From an uncultured bacterium (lineage in GTDB: Bacteria > Fermentibacterota > Fermentibacteria > Fermentibacterales > JCC-6): DNA of 34,755 nt. The translations under genes were made by a program, and so were the position numbers. Of this stretch, positions 5,616 through 33,545 are shown in pieces. Under the pieces are notes generated by a model. It did no database searches. It saw only the letters and a list, made by a program, of their open reading frames with translations, and had not been told where the DNA came from. Within the stretch, counting starts at the first letter, position 1. Each line of letters starts with the position of its first letter. The DNA is taken from NCBI GenBank assembly GCA_965371785.1, contig CBDUZS010000026.1:1-34755 (forward strand). Reading direction: 5' to 3'.

Positions 5616-6932
5616 TCAGCTTTCGGACATCCAGCAGCCCAGGGACTCGAGCGCCCTCTTACTGTATGCCGCTCTCTTCTCTCTTCTTCCCCTGCCTTTG
5701 ACCGTGGCAGGGAAAAGCCCGTAGTTGATGTTGCTGGGCTGGAACTCATGACCCGGGGCAGTAGTGACGTGGGAAAGGAGTGCTCCCAGGGCTGTCTCGC
5801 GAGGTGGCGGGACAGGTTCGACACCATCGAGGAAGGATGAGAGAAAATATCCGCAGAGCCATCCACTGGCCACTGATTCCAGGTAGCCCTCCACACCGGT
5901 TATCTGCCCGGCAAACGAAACACTCTCCCTCCCCCGCAGACGGAGCCAGGAATCCAGTATTGCGGGAGAGTTCAGGTAAGTATTCCTGTGCATGGAACCA
6001 AGTCTCAGGAAAACCGCCTTGCCGAGTCCAGGAATGCTTCGGAAGAGCCGTTTCTGGGCTGGATAGGTCAGTTGAGTCTGGAAACCCACGAGGTTCCAGG
6101 CAGAACCTTCTTTGTTCTCCATCCTCAGCTGAACGACTGCGAAAGGTCTCTCACCCGTACGGGGATCGATTAGTCCTACAGGCTTCATAGGACCGTGCGC
6201 CAGTGCCGCAGCACCACTCTCACCGATGACCTCTACCGGCATACACCCACTGAAATGTTTCTTCTTCTCGAATTCGCGGACCGGAACTCTCTCGGAAGAC
6301 AGCAGGGCATCGACGAATTGGAAATACTCCTCCTCCGACATCGGACAGTTGAGATAGGCTCCCTCTCCGCCGTCGTACCTCGACTGCAGAAAAGTAACCG
6401 ACCGATCGATGCCGTCACCCTCCACGATCGGAGCGAGTGCATCGTAGAAGTACAATTCGTCCGAACCGGTCAGGTTCGAGATTTCGAGAGCAAGCAGATC
6501 GGATGTGAGAGGGCCCGTGGCTACGATCTGGAATCGATCGTCTTCCAGATCGGTAACCTCTTCACGAATGAGCTCTATTCCCGGATTACGCTCTATCCTC
6601 TCGGTTATCTCGCTGCTGAAACCATGCCTGTCCACTGCAAGCGCACTCCCAGCGGGGACGGCATGTCCGAGGGCGACCGACAGCACGAAGGAGCCTGCCA
6701 TTTCCAGTTCAGATTTCAGCAGACCGGCAGCGTTTACAGGATCCGCGGAGCGGAAGGAATTGGAACAGACCAGCTCGGCAAGGTCTCCGGTTGTGTGAGC
6801 AGGAGTCATGGTTGCCGGACGCATTTCGAAGAGGACTACACGGAAACCACGCAGGGCCAGTTGCCAGGCTGCCTCGCAGCCGGCAAGACCACCTCCTATT
6901 ACCTTGACTTCAGGCTTTCCCACCGGTTTCAC
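5616..6932 (-). CDS. trmFO: Methylenetetrahydrofolate--tRNA-(uracil54-C5)-methyltransferase TrmFO (Gid)
   Basis: N-terminal KVIGGGLAGCEAAWQLA FAD-binding motif. It is 438 aa with a TrmFO-type architecture. Confidence 0.9.
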   Translation of the reverse strand: MKPVGKPEVKVIGGGLAGCEAAWQLALRGFRVVLFEMRPATMTPAHTTGDLAELVCSNSFRSADPVNAAGLLKSELEMAGSFVLSVALGHAVPAGSALAVDRHGFSSEITERIERNPGIELIREEVTDLEDDRFQIVATGPLTSDLLALEISNLTGSDELYFYDALAPIVEGDGIDRSVTFLQSRYDGGEGAYLNCPMSEEEYFQFVDALLSSERVPVREFEKKKHFSGCMPVEVIGESGAAALAHGPMKPVGLIDPRTGERPFAVVQLRMENKEGSAWNLVGFQTQLTYPAQKRLFRSIPGLGKAVFLRLGSMHRNTYLNSPAILDSWLRLRGRESVSFAGQITGVEGYLESVASGWLCGYFLSSFLDGVEPVPPPRETALGALLSHVTTAPGHEFQPSNINYGLFPATVKGRGRREKRAAYSKRALESLGCWMSES

Positions 6933-7195: not shown

Positions 7196-8227
7196 ATGCG
7201 GATCCTTGTGGCTACAACTTACACTCTACCGGCCTATTCAGGTGGATGGACCACTCCGCTGGATCTTTTCGGAGACGAACACCAGGCAATGTACGTGGTC
7301 CGCAACTACCATGCCGGAACGAGTATCATTGAGGGAATCAGGTGTGTCGGTGCAGGCGCCGTCGGCAGGTTTGCCACCCCATGGAACAGGGCGGAAAAGT
7401 ACAGGCATGCCCTGGTTCAGAGATTGTTCCGCAACGCACTGAAAAGACACTTCCATAAGTTTCGGGCAGATTTCGTTCTCTGCCTGGATCCTGAAGCCGG
7501 CTATGCCGCCATGCATTCCGGACTCCCCTATGCCATGCGTTTCCATTCAAAATTGAGCCGGGTGGACCGGAAACATCCCTTTGACGATCTAATGGAGAAT
7601 GCGATTTTTGCCATTTGCTGCCAGGCAACGTACATCCCTGATATCGAGATCGTTCCCCACAATCAGGATCTCTCGAGATTCACATATCTGGAGAGCCCTT
7701 CCGCCGAAAGGGCGATTCTGCTCACCAGCATTGACAGTATCCACGAACCTGAGCTTTTCATCGAGGGAGTCATGCTCTCGAAGAGAATGAAAGGAGATAT
7801 CGTAGGTACGGGGGAGGATCGAAAGAAAATCGCAGCACTCTGCCGAAAGACCGGGGGGCGAGTCCGCTGCCTGTCACCTGTTCCCAGGCTGAAAGTACCT
7901 GCACTGCTCAATAACTATCAGGTGGGGGTTGCAACGGTCAGGAACATTTCACCGATCGTCTACCAGATGAAGGTCAACGCCTACATGGCTTCCGGTCTCT
8001 ACACACTGGCAAAGCCCTGGACCCACATAGCATCCGAAGCACCGGATCTGATCGGTGTCTTTACAACTGCCGGAGACCTGGCAAACCGTCTTGATTACCT
8101 GAGTGACAACTGGGCTGAAACACTGACAATCCGACGACAGGCCCGGGGCTGGATAAACGAGAACTACTCGGTGGAAATCCCGAGAAAACGCTTCAGAGAA
8201 ATACTCAGCGAGAAATTCTCGCCCTGA
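7196..8227 (+). CDS. Glycosyltransferase (GT-B fold, GT4-like)
   Basis: 343 aa, N-terminus MRILVATTYTLP. The C-terminal half carries a GT-B nucleotide-sugar-binding-like region. It sits beside the flippase and GT2 genes. Confidence 0.55.
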   Translation: MRILVATTYTLPAYSGGWTTPLDLFGDEHQAMYVVRNYHAGTSIIEGIRCVGAGAVGRFATPWNRAEKYRHALVQRLFRNALKRHFHKFRADFVLCLDPEAGYAAMHSGLPYAMRFHSKLSRVDRKHPFDDLMENAIFAICCQATYIPDIEIVPHNQDLSRFTYLESPSAERAILLTSIDSIHEPELFIEGVMLSKRMKGDIVGTGEDRKKIAALCRKTGGRVRCLSPVPRLKVPALLNNYQVGVATVRNISPIVYQMKVNAYMASGLYTLAKPWTHIASEAPDLIGVFTTAGDLANRLDYLSDNWAETLTIRRQARGWINENYSVEIPRKRFREILSEKFSP

Positions 8228-9779
8228 TCCTGTCCGCTACCTCTGACGATGCCCGTGCCAGGGTTGTGCTTCTCAGCACAATGAGAACCACCGTCATGAC
8301 CAGAATCCCACTGCCGGCATAGCAGAACAGCTGCAGTAATTTTGTGAAGGCGGGAGCTTCGGTTGAAAATGGCCAGAGGTGGATTGTCAACAGCGAGCCT
8401 GCAACAAGGAAGATGTTTGCGGAAAGAATCTTCAGCTGCTCTCCCACTACCAGCCGAAGCTGAAGGCCACCCATCTTCCTGGAGAGGGACCATGTCAGAT
8501 AGACGGTTTTAGCCGTTGACGTTGCCGTTGTCGCCAGCGCAAGCCCGCCAATCCCCAGTGGCCCCACCAGAATCAGATTCAGCAACACGTTTGCAACAAC
8601 ACCGAAAATACCGATGGTTACAGGTGTAGCCGAATCCTTCTGAGCATAAAAAGCCCTGGAGACAAGCGAGCCGATACCGAACTGGGCAAGCCAGGGGGCG
8701 TAAAAAGCCAGGGCATATCCGATGTACCGCGAATCCTCCCCGGTGAAGTTGCCTCTCTGAAAGAAAACGGAAACAACTGGAACCGCCAGAACGGTCAGGA
8801 GGGCGGCAGCAGGAAACATCACTAGCGACGTCGTGTTCAGGTTTCTTCTGAGGATGGCAAGTAACTTGTCCACCTTCCCTTTCGCCGCCTCAGCCGAGAA
8901 GCTCAGGTCCGCGAAGACCAGGAAGGGTGTGAAGACAACAGCAAGAACGATGTTCTTGATCCTGTTGGCATAGTCTATGGCCGTAATCGAGCTTACCGGC
9001 AGGAAAGAAGCCAGCATCTTGTCAGCAATGGGCGCAAGGAAACCTACAAACGTTCCTCCTACCACGGGAGCAGCCATCCTTGCGAGCTGCCCCATGAATG
9101 GATCCCTGGCAATGGAGGGGTTAACCTTGAAACCGCTTCTGTAACTCTGGACAAGCAGGAATACAAAGTCCGCCAGACCCCCTATCAGCATCGAAATCGG
9201 AAGGATTCTGATACCGATACTGCCGCGGACCACAAGAAGAACGGTAAGTGATACTGCAAGACCCAGAACTCCTGAAAGGGACAGGACAGTGAATCTTTTC
9301 TCGTACTTAATGAAATTCGCCAGTATCCCGTTGGTCGTTCTGAGGATCACGATAGGCAGCAGAATTCTGAAAAGGTTTGATGACAGTTCCAGCAGTTCCT
9401 GCGAGCCGCTGGGGCTTATTACTCTTACAAGAGTCCCGCTCGAGAACCAGAGAATGGAAACGAGTATGGAACTTGTAAGGACAAGCCAGGAAATGGTCTT
9501 GTTAACAAAGGCAACGGCTCCATCATGTCCTCTCTTCTCCATGACCCTGGAATAGATGGGAATGAAAGCCGAACCGAATGAATGTGCAACAACTTCCCTG
9601 ACCAGGAGGGGAAAGACCATGGCGATAGCCAGGGCATCGGTTTGCCAGTCTGCTCCGAAAATCGCTGTAATCTGGGCAAAACGAAAATAGGAAAGCAGCG
9701 CTATGAAAATACTGCTGGCTGAGAGTGCCGAAAGCCCGAGGAGTTTACTGTTCCCCGCCGGCCTGGGCTTTTCCGTCAT
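8205..9779 (-). CDS. MOP-superfamily oligosaccharide/lipid-linked glycan flippase (MurJ/MviN-like)
   Basis: About 14 TM helices. The N-terminus (MTEKPRPAGNSKLLGLSALSASSIFIALLSYFRFAQITAIFGA) is typical of MurJ/Wzx-type proteins. The ATG at 9777-9779 overlaps the upstream GT2 stop (ATGA). The 3' end overlaps the convergent GT gene by 23 nt. Confidence 0.8.
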   Translation of the reverse strand: MTEKPRPAGNSKLLGLSALSASSIFIALLSYFRFAQITAIFGADWQTDALAIAMVFPLLVREVVAHSFGSAFIPIYSRVMEKRGHDGAVAFVNKTISWLVLTSSILVSILWFSSGTLVRVISPSGSQELLELSSNLFRILLPIVILRTTNGILANFIKYEKRFTVLSLSGVLGLAVSLTVLLVVRGSIGIRILPISMLIGGLADFVFLLVQSYRSGFKVNPSIARDPFMGQLARMAAPVVGGTFVGFLAPIADKMLASFLPVSSITAIDYANRIKNIVLAVVFTPFLVFADLSFSAEAAKGKVDKLLAILRRNLNTTSLVMFPAAALLTVLAVPVVSVFFQRGNFTGEDSRYIGYALAFYAPWLAQFGIGSLVSRAFYAQKDSATPVTIGIFGVVANVLLNLILVGPLGIGGLALATTATSTAKTVYLTWSLSRKMGGLQLRLVVGEQLKILSANIFLVAGSLLTIHLWPFSTEAPAFTKLLQLFCYAGSGILVMTVVLIVLRSTTLARASSEVADRIRARISR

Positions 9780-10624
9780 TCTCCGCTCCGGGGAAGTCTG
9801 GGGGCGATCCCTCTGAGAACCGACTGCAATCCCAGGTAATATCCACTGACAGCTTCCGGGTTTATCGCTGCGTATACAAACAACCGTAGAATGCACTTCA
9901 TGATGATCAGTCTTCTGACAGCATCAGCATTGGAAGAATCGTGATTCCTGAAGAACTCGAGCATGCCCCAGTGAAAACAGGAAAGCCTGGTGGAAGTGGC
10001 TCTTTCTGAGCCCTGCCGCTGTTCATGAACGAACCTGCTTCTCTCACAGAGATCAACGTTCATTCCCAGCATTTTTGCTCTCGCGAAGAGATCCACATCC
10101 TCGAAGAAGAGTGGAAATCTGCTGCCGAATCCCTCCAGCTGAAGAAAATCATCCCGATGGATCAGAATCAGAGAGCCCTGAAGCCAGTTCATCCGGTCTC
10201 TCCGCCAGAGAGTTTCCGCAGGTTTGAATATCTGTGACCTGACCCAGTGGATTGTCGGCCATATCCCGGTGGAACGCATCGGCCTTCCGGAAGAATCCAC
10301 GGTTCGTCCCCCCGTAAGGCTGCCAGAGGAGTGATGATCCATGATAGCTCTCAGCGATTCACTGTTCTCAGGCAGAGTATCCGGATTGGTAATGAGTACA
10401 ACCGGGTCGTCGCATTCCCTGACTGCGCGATTTATCCCCAGGCCAAATCCAGTGTTACCCGTGAAGGGCAGTACTTTCACATTACCATTGATCAAAGCCG
10501 GAATGTTGTTGCCGTTATCGGATATCACACATGAGGCGCCGGTCTCTGACCATTCCCGTGCCCAGTTCCTGACAGCTTCCGGGTTTCCGTATGCAACGGT
10601 AACCACAGTTACCGGTAACGACAA
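9776..10624 (-). CDS. Glycosyltransferase family 2
   Basis: VTVVTVAYGNPE N-terminus with DxD-type acidic motifs (FFEDVD); a GT-A fold. Confidence 0.8.
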   Translation of the reverse strand: MSLPVTVVTVAYGNPEAVRNWAREWSETGASCVISDNGNNIPALINGNVKVLPFTGNTGFGLGINRAVRECDDPVVLITNPDTLPENSESLRAIMDHHSSGSLTGGRTVDSSGRPMRSTGIWPTIHWVRSQIFKPAETLWRRDRMNWLQGSLILIHRDDFLQLEGFGSRFPLFFEDVDLFARAKMLGMNVDLCERSRFVHEQRQGSERATSTRLSCFHWGMLEFFRNHDSSNADAVRRLIIMKCILRLFVYAAINPEAVSGYYLGLQSVLRGIAPRLPRSGE

Positions 10625-10824: not shown

Positions 10825-11763
10825 ATGACATTCCCGGAGAAAACTGCTCTTCCCTGCATTGGTGTGCTCCTCGTTAACTACAACCAGTGGGAAATTACGC
10901 GGAAGTGCGTGGAGTCTCTTCTTGAATCTCATGGAGTCCGTGTTGTCATAGGTCTTGTGGACAACAACTCCTCAGAGCCGACACCTGGATGGATAAGGGA
11001 TATGTCGGAGATCAGCTATTTCAGAAATCCGGGTAATTATGGTTTCATAGCCGGCAACATCAAGGCTTACGAAATGGTTATCAAACGGGATGTTGACTTT
11101 GTTATTCTGCTGAACAACGATACAGAAGTTGCACCGGATGCTCTTCATCTTCTCGTGACGCACTTCGAGAAACATCCCGACACAGGCCTCGCAACTCCAG
11201 TGATAACCTATGCCGAGGATAGAACTGTTGTCTGGCATGCTGGCGGGACCTTCATCCCCTGGCGAATGGGTGTGAAGCAGTTGTACAAAACAACTGCAGA
11301 TCTTCCGGAGAAGGCTGTTGAGGTCGATCAGATCTCCGGTTGCGCCATGATGATGCGGGTGGAGCTGTTCAAAAGGATAGGTTACCAGGATTCTGATCTA
11401 TTCATTTACCACGAGGATGTGGAACAGAGCCTCATGTCCTCTGAGATGGGGTTCAGGAACTACCTTGTCCCGAATGCCAGAGTTGTACACCATGTTTCCA
11501 TTACCGTAGGCGGTGTACTCTCTCCGTTTGCAGTTTACTTCACTCACAGAAACAGGTACATATTCGCAAATCGCAATCTGAAGGGGATGAACCTGTTTGC
11601 CTTCCGTTTCTACTACCTGGCCGTCACGCTGGCAAAAACGGTGATCTATCCCCTGAGGAAGTGTGGTAAACTAGTTTACTGGATGTGGCTCGGGCTGATG
11701 CATGGAGTGAGAAACAGACCGGACAAAAAACCGGATGGTCTTTTCCCCAAAGACACTGAATGA
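10825..11763 (+). CDS. Glycosyltransferase family 2 (rhamnosyltransferase/WbbL-like)
   Basis: GVLLVNYNQWEITRKCVESL, LVDNNS and ILLNNDTEV motifs of the GT2 family. Confidence 0.85.
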   Translation: MTFPEKTALPCIGVLLVNYNQWEITRKCVESLLESHGVRVVIGLVDNNSSEPTPGWIRDMSEISYFRNPGNYGFIAGNIKAYEMVIKRDVDFVILLNNDTEVAPDALHLLVTHFEKHPDTGLATPVITYAEDRTVVWHAGGTFIPWRMGVKQLYKTTADLPEKAVEVDQISGCAMMMRVELFKRIGYQDSDLFIYHEDVEQSLMSSEMGFRNYLVPNARVVHHVSITVGGVLSPFAVYFTHRNRYIFANRNLKGMNLFAFRFYYLAVTLAKTVIYPLRKCGKLVYWMWLGLMHGVRNRPDKKPDGLFPKDTE

Positions 11764-11800
11764 CAGTATCTGCCGTCCTCCGTTTACAGGGGGATGCCAG

Positions 11801-12439
11801 TCAGTTGTGTGACGGTTCAGCGAACAGGGATTTAATGGCTCCATGAGTCGTCTGCACTAATCCCAGGCTGCCCTCGAATCGGAGCATGACCACAAGACTG
11901 GACATCGTGCCGCTTACATCCTCGTACTCCCCTGAGATGGATCTTATCGTACCGGTGTTCCAGTGCCATGAGTAAAGGCACTCATCCTCGGTTTCCCCGT
12001 CGCTCCAGAGGAACTCTATCAGGAGATTGTCTTCTCCGTTGTACCAGTACGGCGTATCCAGTTCGAATACTTCCCATTCACCCGGATCGGGTGAAAGGGT
12101 AATGGAATCCCTTTCGAAGATCGTGGTCCTGGAACCTGGGATGTAGTTGTCATCGAAGACGGGCACGAGCACGTCATTCCCGGTAAGCCCCATGCAGATC
12201 TCGAAATCAAAGAAAATCCCGACCGCCGGATTCCCAGGAGAGTACCTCTTGCAGGCGATACTCTCCACGGTCATGGCGTTGCCCATCTCCTCATCGAGCA
12301 CTACCACCAGGTAGCGAAGGGACTCAGCTCAACCGATTCCCATCGGATTGCACCCCGAAACCTCTGGATTGCCGACGACGATCTCGGTGCAGAAACCTGC
12401 GGAAGCGATGAACAGCATCAGCAGAGTCAGTATTTTCAT
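11801..12439 (-). CDS. Secreted protein of unknown family, candidate selenoprotein (212 codons; in-frame TGA at codon 37, plus strand 12329..12331)
   Basis: ATG at 12439 (minus) is preceded by GGTGAT. It encodes MKILTLLMLFIASAGFCTEIVVGNPEVSGCNPMGIG, then TGA, then continues in the same frame as AESLRYLVVVLDEE... into the 168-aa ORF from the six-frame track. It is a paralog of 12464..13111. Its terminal stop is also TGA. Confidence 0.6.
12298..12317 (-). promoter_or_regulatory. SECIS-like RNA hairpin 11 nt downstream of the in-frame UGA of paralog 1
   Basis: Minus-strand RNA ucgcuacc-UGGU-gguagugc has a 7-bp stem including one G.U pair. 19 of 20 nt match the element in paralog 2. The spacer to the UGA is 11 nt (12318..12328). 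Confidence 0.5.
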
Positions 12440-12463
12440 CCCGGGATCACCAATCCCGGATCG

Positions 12464-13111
12464 TCAGTTCGACTGCAGGATCTTGATACCTGCAAAAGTG
12501 GTTGACTCGAGATCCAGGTAGTCACCTACAAGTTTCAACCTGCTCATCGCACTGGAAAGGCTGCCGGTAGGGACTGAAGGCGCGCCTGCTGCAGTCGCAG
12601 CAACAGCCCTGATTATTCCCGTATCCCAGCCGTACGTGTAGAAGCTCTGGTTGTCGACGGGAGATGACCAGGTCACTTCGATGAGGAGATTTCCCTGGCC
12701 AAACCAGTAAGTGAACGGCGTGTCGAGCTGAATCGTGCACCATTCACCGGCGCTGCCGCTGAAAACGTATGTATAACTGTCGAATACCTGTGTCCTGCTT
12801 CCCTCGACGTAGTTGTCTTCGAATGTGGAAACGAGCTGATCGCTTGCGCAGTATCCCATGTAGATCTTCACATCGTTGAATTCGGCAGACGGGTCAGCTG
12901 CGGGATGCACCTGCACTCCGACGTCGGTAATGTGAAGGTTGCCCCCGATCTCTTCGTCCAGCACTACCACCAGGTAGCGCATGGCCTCGAATCAAGATCC
13001 GCAGTAGGGATAGCTGCTTGCGGGACCGCCTTCCGGTCCGATGATCACTTCATCGGCCAGAACGACCGAGAAGAGTGTGACGAGCAAAAGGACTCCAACG
13101 GTGCTTCTCAT
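12464..13111 (-). CDS. Secreted protein of unknown family, candidate selenoprotein (215 codons; in-frame TGA at codon 40, plus strand 12992..12994; Cys-Gly-Ser-[UGA] motif)
   Basis: ATG at 13111 (minus) is preceded by AGGAGAGGGG. It encodes MRSTVGVLLLVTLFSVVLADEVIIGPEGGPASSYPYCGS, then TGA, then FEAMRYLVVVLDEE... (the 172-aa track ORF) in the same frame. The domain motifs FEDNYV.GSRT, GEW, LDTP and NLLIE are shared with paralog 1. Confidence 0.6.
12961..12980 (-). promoter_or_regulatory. SECIS-like RNA hairpin 11 nt downstream of the in-frame UGA of paralog 2
   Basis: Minus-strand RNA gcgcuacc-UGGU-gguagugc has an 8-bp stem including one G.U pair. The spacer to the UGA is 11 nt (12981..12991). 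Spacing and sequence match the paralog 1 element. Confidence 0.5.
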
Positions 13112-13324
13112 ACTGCCCCTCTCCTTATTTCCCACTTGTTTGATATGTATTGATTTGCGAAATTAGAATAACGAGGCAATGACATAAGGTCAACCTTCCC
13201 TCTGTGATGCGTTGACAAAGACCTTCTGCGAATGACGAACAGTCATTTTCAGCACTACAAAGGTAGGAAATTGAACTCCGGTTGTTTATCTTACACGGGT
13301 ATTTTTCTTGCCGGGGAGCCCGAT

Positions 13325-32427: not shown

Positions 32428-33021
32428 TTAAACGAGTAGCGTGAACTTGCCTCTGTCCGCCATTTCCAGAAAGCTCGCGACACCGACGTAACTGAGCCCC
32501 TCGATTTCCATCAGCTCGTCTTCCTTGATCCCCATCAGTTCCATGGACATCTGGCAGATGTAGAAATTGACGCCGCACTCCTGAGCCAGCTGAAGGAGGT
32601 CGGGAAGGGAGGGTGTGTTGAACTTCTTCATCAGGCTCTTCATCATTACCGGACCCATTCCCGCGAAGTTCATCTTGGACAGCGGCAGTTTTTCCGGCCC
32701 CTTGGGCAACATGAATCCGAACATTTTCTGCAGGAATAGTTTTCCTCCGGACTGGGGTCCCTTCTTCTTCAATATCGATGTACCCCAGAAAGTGAAGAAC
32801 AGGTTGACCTCCATACCCATGGCAGCACCGCCTGTAGCCAGGTTCAGCGCGACCATCGCCTTGTCCATTTCGTCGGAGAAGACAATAATCGTGAGCTTTT
32901 CCTGCAATTCAGTTTCTGAAAGCTTCCCTCTCAAGGAGGATATCTCCCTCTCCAGTGTGTCCAGACGAGCGCCGAGACTGGAACTTTCCGGAGCATCCTT
33001 CTGGAGTTCAGTAGAAGTCAT
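32428..33021 (-). CDS. DsrE/DsrF-like sulfur-relay family protein with about 45-aa N-terminal coiled-coil extension
   Basis: LTIIVFSDEMDKAMVALNLATGGAAMGMEVNLFFTFWG matches the DsrE-like fold. Its 5' end overlaps the TusA-like stop (ATGA). Confidence 0.6.
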   Translation of the reverse strand: MTSTELQKDAPESSSLGARLDTLEREISSLRGKLSETELQEKLTIIVFSDEMDKAMVALNLATGGAAMGMEVNLFFTFWGTSILKKKGPQSGGKLFLQKMFGFMLPKGPEKLPLSKMNFAGMGPVMMKSLMKKFNTPSLPDLLQLAQECGVNFYICQMSMELMGIKEDELMEIEGLSYVGVASFLEMADRGKFTLLV

Positions 33022-33242
33022 TGTCCTGCCTTTCGAATAACCGCATACGCGACTTCATCCACTACCTCGAAGGAGACGAGGTCATTTCCCGTCTTCCTCA
33101 CCCACGCTTCAAGGTCCGGTCTGAAGGCCGGGTCGTCTGCGGTAACCGTTATCTGAGCCTCTGCGTCAAGACCTTTGATGGCCATACTTAGCTTTACGAT
33201 TGGCATGGGACATCGCATGCCTCTGCAATCGAGTTGCTCCAT
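33018..33242 (-). CDS. TusA-like sulfurtransferase (CPxP motif)
   Basis: MEQLDCRGMRCPMPIVKL...; 74 aa. The longer upstream extension in the ORF track is non-protein-like. Confidence 0.8.
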   Translation of the reverse strand: MEQLDCRGMRCPMPIVKLSMAIKGLDAEAQITVTADDPAFRPDLEAWVRKTGNDLVSFEVVDEVAYAVIRKAGQ

Positions 33243-33353
33243 GTTCTGAAATCCTCTCATTCTGCTGCAAATGTAAACTGTCATCGGCTGTGAGATGGCC
33301 GATACGATGTTGGATGAAGTACTTATCCGACCACTATTTCTACCAGAAGAGCG

Positions 33354-33383
33354 ACAATACTCGGAACCGCTCCATCCTGTCAA
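33354..33383 (-). promoter_or_regulatory. Possible sigma70-type promoter for the TusA-like/DsrE-like operon
   Basis: Minus strand TTGACA-18 nt-TATTGT, about 110 nt upstream of the TusA-like ATG. Confidence 0.25.
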
Positions 33384-33545
33384 AGCTCGGAAAGGGAACG
33401 GGTGTGGCCCCAGCCAACTCCGCCTACCAACCATCACTAATCCCGTAACCTCCGACGATACCCACGTGCGAAGCACGTGTTGGCTCTAACCGCGTGTTGG
33501 GCGGACGGCTCACTCATCAGTGCAACAAATCTCTATTCCTCTGCC

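Follow-up and report, generated by a model that had tools for sequence, protein, structure and literature searches.

The 34,755-nucleotide (nt) stretch of DNA analysed here, referred to below as the window, comes from an uncultured bacterium of the candidate phylum Fermentibacterota (GenBank assembly GCA_965371785.1, contig CBDUZS010000026.1, positions 1 to 34,755). Its minus strand carries two tandem paralogous genes (13111..12464 and 12439..11801), each encoding a signal peptide, an in-frame UGA codon and a beta-sandwich domain of about 170 amino acids (aa), with a nearly identical hairpin a short distance past the UGA. Sequence comparison makes it very probable that both hairpins are bacterial selenocysteine insertion sequence (SECIS) elements, directing selenocysteine (Sec) to the in-frame UGA of two small secreted proteins. 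The features concerned are the following, with a slash marking the signal-peptide boundary in the precursors:

12464..13111, minus strand: paralog 2, putative selenoprotein gene; ATG at 13111, Sec-UGA at 12994..12992, terminal TGA at 12466..12464
12464..13111, minus strand: predicted paralog 2 precursor, 215 aa, MRSTVGVLLLVTLFSVVLA/DEVIIGPEGGPASSYPYCGS-U-FEAMRYLVVVLDEE...
13055..13111, minus strand: predicted signal peptide of paralog 2; boundary approximate, set by eye
12992..13003, minus strand: putative CxxU motif Cys-Gly-Ser-Sec of paralog 2; UGA at 12994..12992
12961..12980, minus strand: candidate SECIS hairpin of paralog 2; 8-base-pair (bp) stem GCGCUACC/GGUAGUGC, loop UGGU, 11 nt past UGA
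11801..12439, minus strand: paralog 1, putative selenoprotein gene; ATG at 12439, Sec-UGA at 12331..12329, terminal TGA at 11803..11801
11801..12439, minus strand: predicted paralog 1 precursor, 212 aa, MKILTLLMLFIASAGFC/TEIVVGNPEVSGCNPMGIG-U-AESLRYLVVVLDEE...
12389..12439, minus strand: predicted signal peptide of paralog 1; boundary approximate, set by eye
12329..12331, minus strand: putative Sec-encoding UGA of paralog 1, in frame
12298..12317, minus strand: candidate SECIS hairpin of paralog 1; 7-bp stem CGCUACC/GGUAGUG, loop UGGU, 11 nt past UGA

Both UGA codons are in frame with the upstream signal peptide as well as with the downstream domain, which spans about 172 aa in each paralog and begins with (M/L)RYLVVVLDEE. 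The predicted mature proteins have about 195 aa. The putative Sec residue of paralog 2 belongs to a C-G-S-U motif of the CxxU redox or metal-binding type, that of paralog 1 to a C-x6-U motif.

Two hairpins with SECIS geometry

The 20-nt element reads GCGCUACC-UGGU-GGUAGUGC in paralog 2 (12980..12961) and UCGCUACC-UGGU-GGUAGUGC in paralog 1 (12317..12298), following spacers uucgaggccau and gcugagucccu, respectively. The original prediction, made from the letters of the window alone, placed this hairpin exactly 11 nt past the UGA in both paralogs, with a 7-8-bp stem including one G.U pair and 19 of 20 nucleotides shared, amid coding sequence of roughly one-third amino-acid identity. All of this was borne out: coordinates and sequences are exact, 19/20 nt are common to both hairpins, and identity between the paralogs is 38% for amino acids, 52% for nucleotides and 42% at third positions. 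RNAfold, proposed at that time as a check, predicts the hairpin after each UGA in its own context, with 8 bp in paralog 2 and 7 bp in paralog 1, one G.U pair, and energies of -12.7 and -9.8 kcal/mol for the respective bare 20-mers. The stem of paralog 2 can be extended by CCA/UGG (12984..12958). The RYLVVVL stretch is the most conserved 21-nt (7-codon) segment of the gene pair, with 20/21 identical positions where the average is 10.8 +/- 3.2. A scan of the window, both strands included, for TGA, 11-17 nt, a stem of at least 7 bp and an NGGN loop gave no site other than these two, dinucleotide shuffles giving 0.76 sites per window.

As the 11-nt spacer is followed by 8 further nucleotides, the apical loop starts 19 nt downstream of UGA. 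The bacterial SECIS (bSECIS) consensus of Zhang and Gladyshev, in the excerpt given by PMC13188914, calls for 3-9 nt in the apical loop and 4-16 bp in the upper stem, a G within the first two loop positions that is typically followed by G or U, a UGA-to-loop distance of 16-37 nt and a minimum free energy (MFE) of -7.5 kcal/mol or lower. With a 4-nt loop, a 7-8-bp stem, G at loop position 2, a distance of 19 nt and -12.7/-9.8 kcal/mol, both hairpins agree with the excerpted consensus on all four of its counts. Their placement, inside the open reading frame (ORF) immediately past an in-frame UGA, agrees with it too.

Conservation of the UGA codon and its cysteine counterparts

Sixteen close database homologs, which belong to Candidatus Fermentibacteraceae where an organism is named, are all called as proteins of about 172 aa starting from a Met after the UGA; one of them (P0001) is 100% identical to the sequence of paralog 2 past the UGA. 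We fetched 49 loci from genomes and metagenomes, the named organisms being Fermentibacteria, Aegiribacteria, Sabulitectum or Hyd24-12. In about 55 related gene copies, from Fermentibacterota and from unassigned metagenome contigs, the UGA is kept without exception, mostly as CxxU. Wherever upstream sequence was available (39/39 loci), the frame stays open 5' of the TGA, through the conserved stretch ..V-I-I-G-x5-7-SSYPFCGS-U and a signal peptide, and the N-termini upstream of UGA are hydrophobic in all homologs. The orthologs bear the motifs CGSU, CATU, CGTU, FSCU, FGCU and SNGU at the UGA, SCU and GCU endings occurring as well. An in-frame TGA is likewise present in 11 tandem second copies and 7 more divergent copies. 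The tandem arrangement is conserved, and the 11 second copies with a UGA, each at a different locus, read either GCAPIGIG-U, as in paralog 1, or EPFCCS-U / EPLCVS-U, and have the same hairpin. The GCAPIGIG-U second copies at L001, L003 and L004 are orthologous to paralog 1.

A profile search of 1.8 billion representatives yielded 943 relatives. Among them are full-length proteins of about 205 aa with a signal peptide and a Cys aligned exactly to the UGA position, all encoded by single contiguous ORFs (P0027, P0051, P0052, P0058, P0074, P0091, P0120 and P0147). P0052 reads ..NPFCGDC-AAS-MRYQTLYL; CGDC recurs in P0027 and P0074, and P0051 has CGFC. Some Cys forms can be matched directly to Sec forms, such as PWSNGC (P0058) to PWSNGU (L017) and FGSC (P0147) to FGCU (L038). 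A Cys aligned with UGA is, in sequence comparison, the standard signature of a selenoprotein. Two of the marks by which comparative genomics recognises a selenoprotein gene are found here: orthologs keep the UGA and are conserved as coding sequence to either side of it, and some homologs have Cys aligned to it. In the top 150, the single-domain representatives comprise about 48 N-terminally truncated calls and 8 full-length Cys forms, and all five truncated calls inspected at the DNA level carry the UGA. This rough count suggests that Sec forms dominate over Cys forms by roughly 6:1 among single-domain representatives.

Conservation of the hairpin at the RNA level

All but one of the approximately 55 UGA copies keep a hairpin, at 11, 14 or 17 nt. 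The loop starts 19 nt from the UGA in both paralogs and about 48 homologs; seven others have an interval of 22 nt and one has 25 nt. Bare-hairpin energies across the family average -10.7 kcal/mol, the weakest being -7.1 kcal/mol; one hairpin (L006) contains a U-C mismatch. Aligning 37 distinct hairpin segments gave 92.6% paired cells overall, and 221/222 for the inner 6 bp. Double-sided changes affect 4 of the 8 stem pairs, in 14 cells total:

Pair 5-24: commonest G-C; double-sided variants U-A and A-U
Pair 9-20: commonest U-A; double-sided variants C-G and A-U
Pair 11-18: commonest C-G; double-sided variant U-A
Pair 12-17: commonest C-G; double-sided variant A-U

The observed covariation score was reached by none of 500 shuffles, and slid registers showed 19-77% pairing with 0-2 covarying pairs. 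The covariation analysis that the original prediction had called for has therefore turned out in its favour, with compensatory changes present and the spacing retained.

Codon usage tells the same story about third positions, which were said to be constrained within the stem: they are, and those just outside vary. The stem Arg codon is always CGC, used for 10% of Arg elsewhere in the same genes, where AGR makes up 66%. The first stem Val is GTG in 32/32 cases compared with 23% elsewhere, and where the amino acid at this codon has changed (GCG, GGG, GAG, TTG) the third-position G pairing with C28 is kept. GTA encodes the second stem Val in 25/34 cases compared with 15% elsewhere, and GTC, the commonest Val codon elsewhere (34%), is found in 0/98 stem codons. 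The Leu codon immediately 3' of the stem varies freely. Some compensatory changes even alter the amino acid (Val to Met in L012 and L061), and the hairpin persists over different peptides, MHCLEIVL in L057 and TRYMAVAY in L058. On this sequence evidence, the bias of the stem codons and the compensatory changes go beyond the demands of the peptide, and the hairpin is selected as RNA.

The apical loop had been singled out for its G and U. Across 48 distinct hairpins, the first position holds A or U, the second always G (48/48) and the third G in 46 cases and U in 2, so the invariant feature is the G of position 2, followed by G or U; the loop U at position 4 is not conserved (U 36, C 8, A 2, G 2).

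No such hairpin follows the Cys codon in the DNA of five Cys-form genes (L050, L053-L056). Their Arg codon is AGA or CGT, and local folds have only -0.7 to -5.1 kcal/mol in a different register. A covariance model built from the hairpins was run on 350 kb and returned 52 sites. Of these, 49 (E <= 0.003) lie at UGA-form genes, including second copies unnoticed before, and a weak match (E 0.24) marks the UGA-form second copy at L001; the remaining two (E 0.06 and 0.35) are outside family genes, and none is at a Cys-form gene. The hairpins of paralogs 2 and 1 score 39.7 and 38.0 bits, respectively. The SECIS candidacy put forward at the outset is thus strengthened, the hairpin being kept in UGA homologs and absent in Cys forms.

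In orthologs of paralog 1 (second copies at L003, L005, L008, L009 and L010), a lower stem extends the hairpin and reaches the UGA in L005 and L010. The extended fold of the L010 second copy (6620-6680) has the lowest energy, -29.5 kcal/mol; the register of the lower stem is not conserved across the family.

Protein family and fold

Neither paralog belongs to a family in Pfam or NCBIfam; the single Pfam match, DUF7030, has an E-value of 0.06-0.09 and falls short of that model's cutoff. Nor is there a corresponding entry or model match among the 119 prokaryotic selenoprotein families of a catalogue dated May 2026, of which most are linked to NCBIfam or Pfam identifiers. The family appears to be new to catalogues of selenoproteins and mis-annotated everywhere.

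A structure model of the domain lacking the N-terminal segment reached a predicted local distance difference test score (pLDDT) of 67, and one of the full-length Cys homolog P0052 reached 89, with a predicted template modelling score of 0.84. From this difference we conclude that the segment upstream of Cys/Sec belongs to the fold. In the model the domain adopts a jelly-roll beta-sandwich similar to PHR domains, carbohydrate-binding modules and phage receptor-binding modules, with the CxxC/CxxU motif in an N-terminal loop that lies between strand 2 and the RYQ strand. A thioredoxin-like fold around CxxU was looked for and not found.

The same domain, for which no Pfam model exists, recurs without the Cys/Sec loop in larger proteins (P0019, P0024, P0033, P0039, P0060, P0063 and P0066), as three copies in lipoprotein-like proteins of about 565 aa and as 2-7 copies in proteins of 1000-3000 aa together with CBM96/disaggregatase, Big_5 and PKD domains. 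These repeated-domain contexts point to an extracytoplasmic binding role of the domain. Redox, metal or chalcogen handling is a possible chemistry of the selenium site.

The C-terminus of the family (11801-11850 and 12464-12500 in the window, minus strand) bears a motif T-F-G-x-I-K-x-L-F, which often forms the last residues; its K is invariant and its T almost invariant. By its sequence it looks like a sorting or beta-signal-like tail.

Proposed mechanism and alternative explanations

According to the established bacterial mechanism, the hairpin would act when the UGA enters the ribosomal A site: still folded at the mRNA entrance, it would display its apical loop, with the invariant G followed by G or U, to the C-terminal domain of SelB carrying GTP and Sec-tRNA(Sec). 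By analogy, SelB would then bring Sec to the UGA and outcompete release factor 2. The comparisons above show the conserved UGA, the pairing of Sec with Cys forms, the covariation and codon bias of the hairpin, its absence in Cys forms and the fit to the bSECIS consensus. SelB binding, actual Sec insertion, export of the proteins and the chemistry of the CxxU site are inferred.

Several observations weigh against this interpretation. The stem sequence is very conserved, so that covariation is carried by a minority of sequences, and this conservation is partly due to coding, the RYQVVVL strand being part of the fold, as the original prediction had itself allowed. That prediction had also named UGA homologs devoid of the hairpin as evidence to the contrary, and one clear exception of this kind exists: a UGA copy at L056 (3898-4383; FSCU-GSQ-VVVVQ), next to a Cys-form paralog, has no 5' arm of the hairpin. 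This copy may be decaying. At L041 (around 3001) the 11-nt spacing is kept by another hairpin, one with 10 bp, a bulged U and a GAG triloop. In the upper stem of the Escherichia coli fdhF SECIS, a bulged U contacts SelB. This bulge has no counterpart in the hairpins of the window, where the helix is continuous with one G.U pair; of the likeness to fdhF claimed initially, the 11-nt spacing holds. An Rfam E-value scan of 11700..13300 gave chance matches only and no SECIS family. Neither the window nor 387 kb of DNA from related loci showed any selA, selB, selC or selD, a search that did not extend to the rest of these genomes. ARAGORN found no tRNA-Sec in the window or 31 loci, and E. coli SelB and SelD sequences had no tblastn matches in any of the DNA compared here, a null result that is uninformative since only about 12 kb per genome was covered. 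Literature searches found no record of Sec use in Fermentibacterota / Hyd24-12, and the founding Hyd24-12 genome paper makes no mention of selenium.

The missing Sec machinery in the DNA examined could be taken to mean that the UGA is read through without Sec, either because a near-cognate or suppressor tRNA puts Trp, Cys or Gly there or because the codon is reassigned across the lineage as in genetic codes 4 and 25, with the hairpin as a generic stimulator. Downstream hairpins are able to stimulate read-through in other systems. We nevertheless regard this as highly improbable. TGA is the commonest stop in the window, ending 17/30 large ORFs including both paralogs and the housekeeping genes for ClpB, MurJ and AsnB (full-length Pfam matches), so UGA must be an ordinary stop in this organism and genome-wide reassignment was rejected. 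Moreover, the residue aligned with UGA is a Cys within CxxC, the classic partner of Sec, and both geometry and the G[G/U] loop fit the SelB-type consensus. Improbable in the extreme, in our judgement, is that the UGA is a true stop, which would leave a short secreted peptide (to ..CGS) and a separate cytoplasmic beta-sandwich protein reinitiating at the Met four codons later, the hairpin being a coupling or pausing structure or a by-product of RYQVVVL. Gene callers do begin all database homologs at that Met, ATG is present there in many orthologs, and GAGG precedes the Met of paralog 2 by 4 nt. This Shine-Dalgarno-like GAGG is not conserved, however, and in many homologs the position holds Leu, Ile, Phe or Val (CTG, CTT, TTA, ATA, ATT, TTT, TTC or GTT; CTT in paralog 1 of the window), which excludes an independent start after the UGA for much of the family. 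Single contiguous ORFs of the Cys homologs, a confident structure model only with the segment upstream of Cys/Sec, and stem codon bias and compensatory changes beyond the needs of the peptide all speak against it as well. The internal stop by itself might suggest pseudogenes or assembly errors, with TGA as a disabling mutation. The chance of this is practically nil, the reading being already refuted: independent assemblies and habitats supply about 55 gene copies that have the TGA at the same position, with protein conservation on both sides.

Genomic context

An AAGGAG Shine-Dalgarno motif (13115-13125, minus strand) is located upstream of the paralog 2 ATG, preceded by a promoter-like TTGACC-17-TATTCT (13165-13193, minus strand); the promoter scan did not exceed shuffle expectation. 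As sequence features, the two are consistent with a two-gene operon. Between the paralog 2 stop and the paralog 1 ATG, another hairpin of 8-9 bp, UCCGGGAU-UGG-UGAUCCCGGG (12440-12462, minus strand; centroid -12.7 kcal/mol, z -1.9), has its 3' arm adjoining the paralog 1 start codon, which has no clear Shine-Dalgarno motif. It may influence how translation of the second gene starts, or mark an RNA processing site.

The gene pair is flanked by a GT2 glycosyltransferase and an asparagine-synthase-like gene, and the wider region encodes ClpB, TrmFO/GidA, MurJ, GlnRS and several GT4 enzymes. No neighbour besides the tandem partner is conserved across loci. The longest ORFs of MurJ and of the upstream glycosyltransferase-like gene (8205-9896 and 9776-10624, minus strand) overlap by about 120 nt, most likely a matter of start-codon choice. 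DsrE2-like and TusA-like genes (32428-33476, minus strand; ATGA overlap) were considered as a hint of selenium metabolism and rejected, as they represent a generic sulfur relay with similarity to the selenium-linked YedF far below the cutoff. No other TGA-split ORF in the window was convincing.

Discussion

The mechanism invoked here is of a known kind, and it is the protein family that appears to be new. As annotated by gene callers and NCBI, every member lacks the part up to the UGA and is a hypothetical protein of about 172 aa, so that both the signal peptide and the Sec residue are missing from all databases; recognising the SECIS element would restore a secreted precursor of about 215 aa. 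The evidence tips slightly towards a broader proposal: an uncatalogued family of secreted selenoproteins with a jelly-roll, non-thioredoxin fold, arranged as a tandem Sec pair with a Sec:Cys ratio of about 6:1, the first sign of Sec decoding in Fermentibacterota (Hyd24-12), whose CxxU loop, carried by a scaffold that binds glycans or surfaces, would form an extracytoplasmic selenium redox, metal or chalcogen site. The prokaryotic selenoproteome would thereby gain a family outside the thioredoxin-fold paradigm, with implied selenium dependence in a candidate phylum whose members abound in anaerobic digesters and sediments. The family would also be a case of dual coding, in which RNA structure dictates a beta-strand sequence: UGA forms carry RYQVVVL, and Cys forms are free to have RYQTLYL.

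CxxU selenoproteins listed in Table 1 of PMC13188914 include SelW-like and AhpD-like proteins, GrdA and the FCYXU-type TonB-dependent receptor. They share with the present family a CxxU motif and homologs with CxxC, and some of them are extracytoplasmic; the F-C-Y-x-U of the TonB-receptor family even resembles F-C-G-S-U in its context (PMC13188914). They differ in that none of the Pfam or NCBIfam models of the catalogued CxxU families matches these proteins and that the fold here is not thioredoxin-like.

At the RNA level, the hairpins are like the excerpted bSECIS consensus in position, in the loop G2 followed by G or U, in the 6-8-bp stem, the 19-nt distance and the MFE. Compared with SECIS elements described so far, their primary sequence is unrelated and they form a perfect helix, with a G.U pair and no bulge. 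They are also unusually invariant in sequence across the whole phylum, because they encode the beta-strand RYQVVVL at the same time. The minimal SECIS of E. coli fdhF is reportedly an upper stem-loop placed 11 nt from the UGA, with the loop AGGUC. Set beside this structure, our hairpins belong to an unrelated host protein and vary at loop position 4, the U. What the two have in common is the 11-nt spacing from UGA to stem and an AGGU-type apical loop with exposed G and U, and in some paralog 1 orthologs the lower stem reaching the UGA resembles the full-length fdhF SECIS as well.

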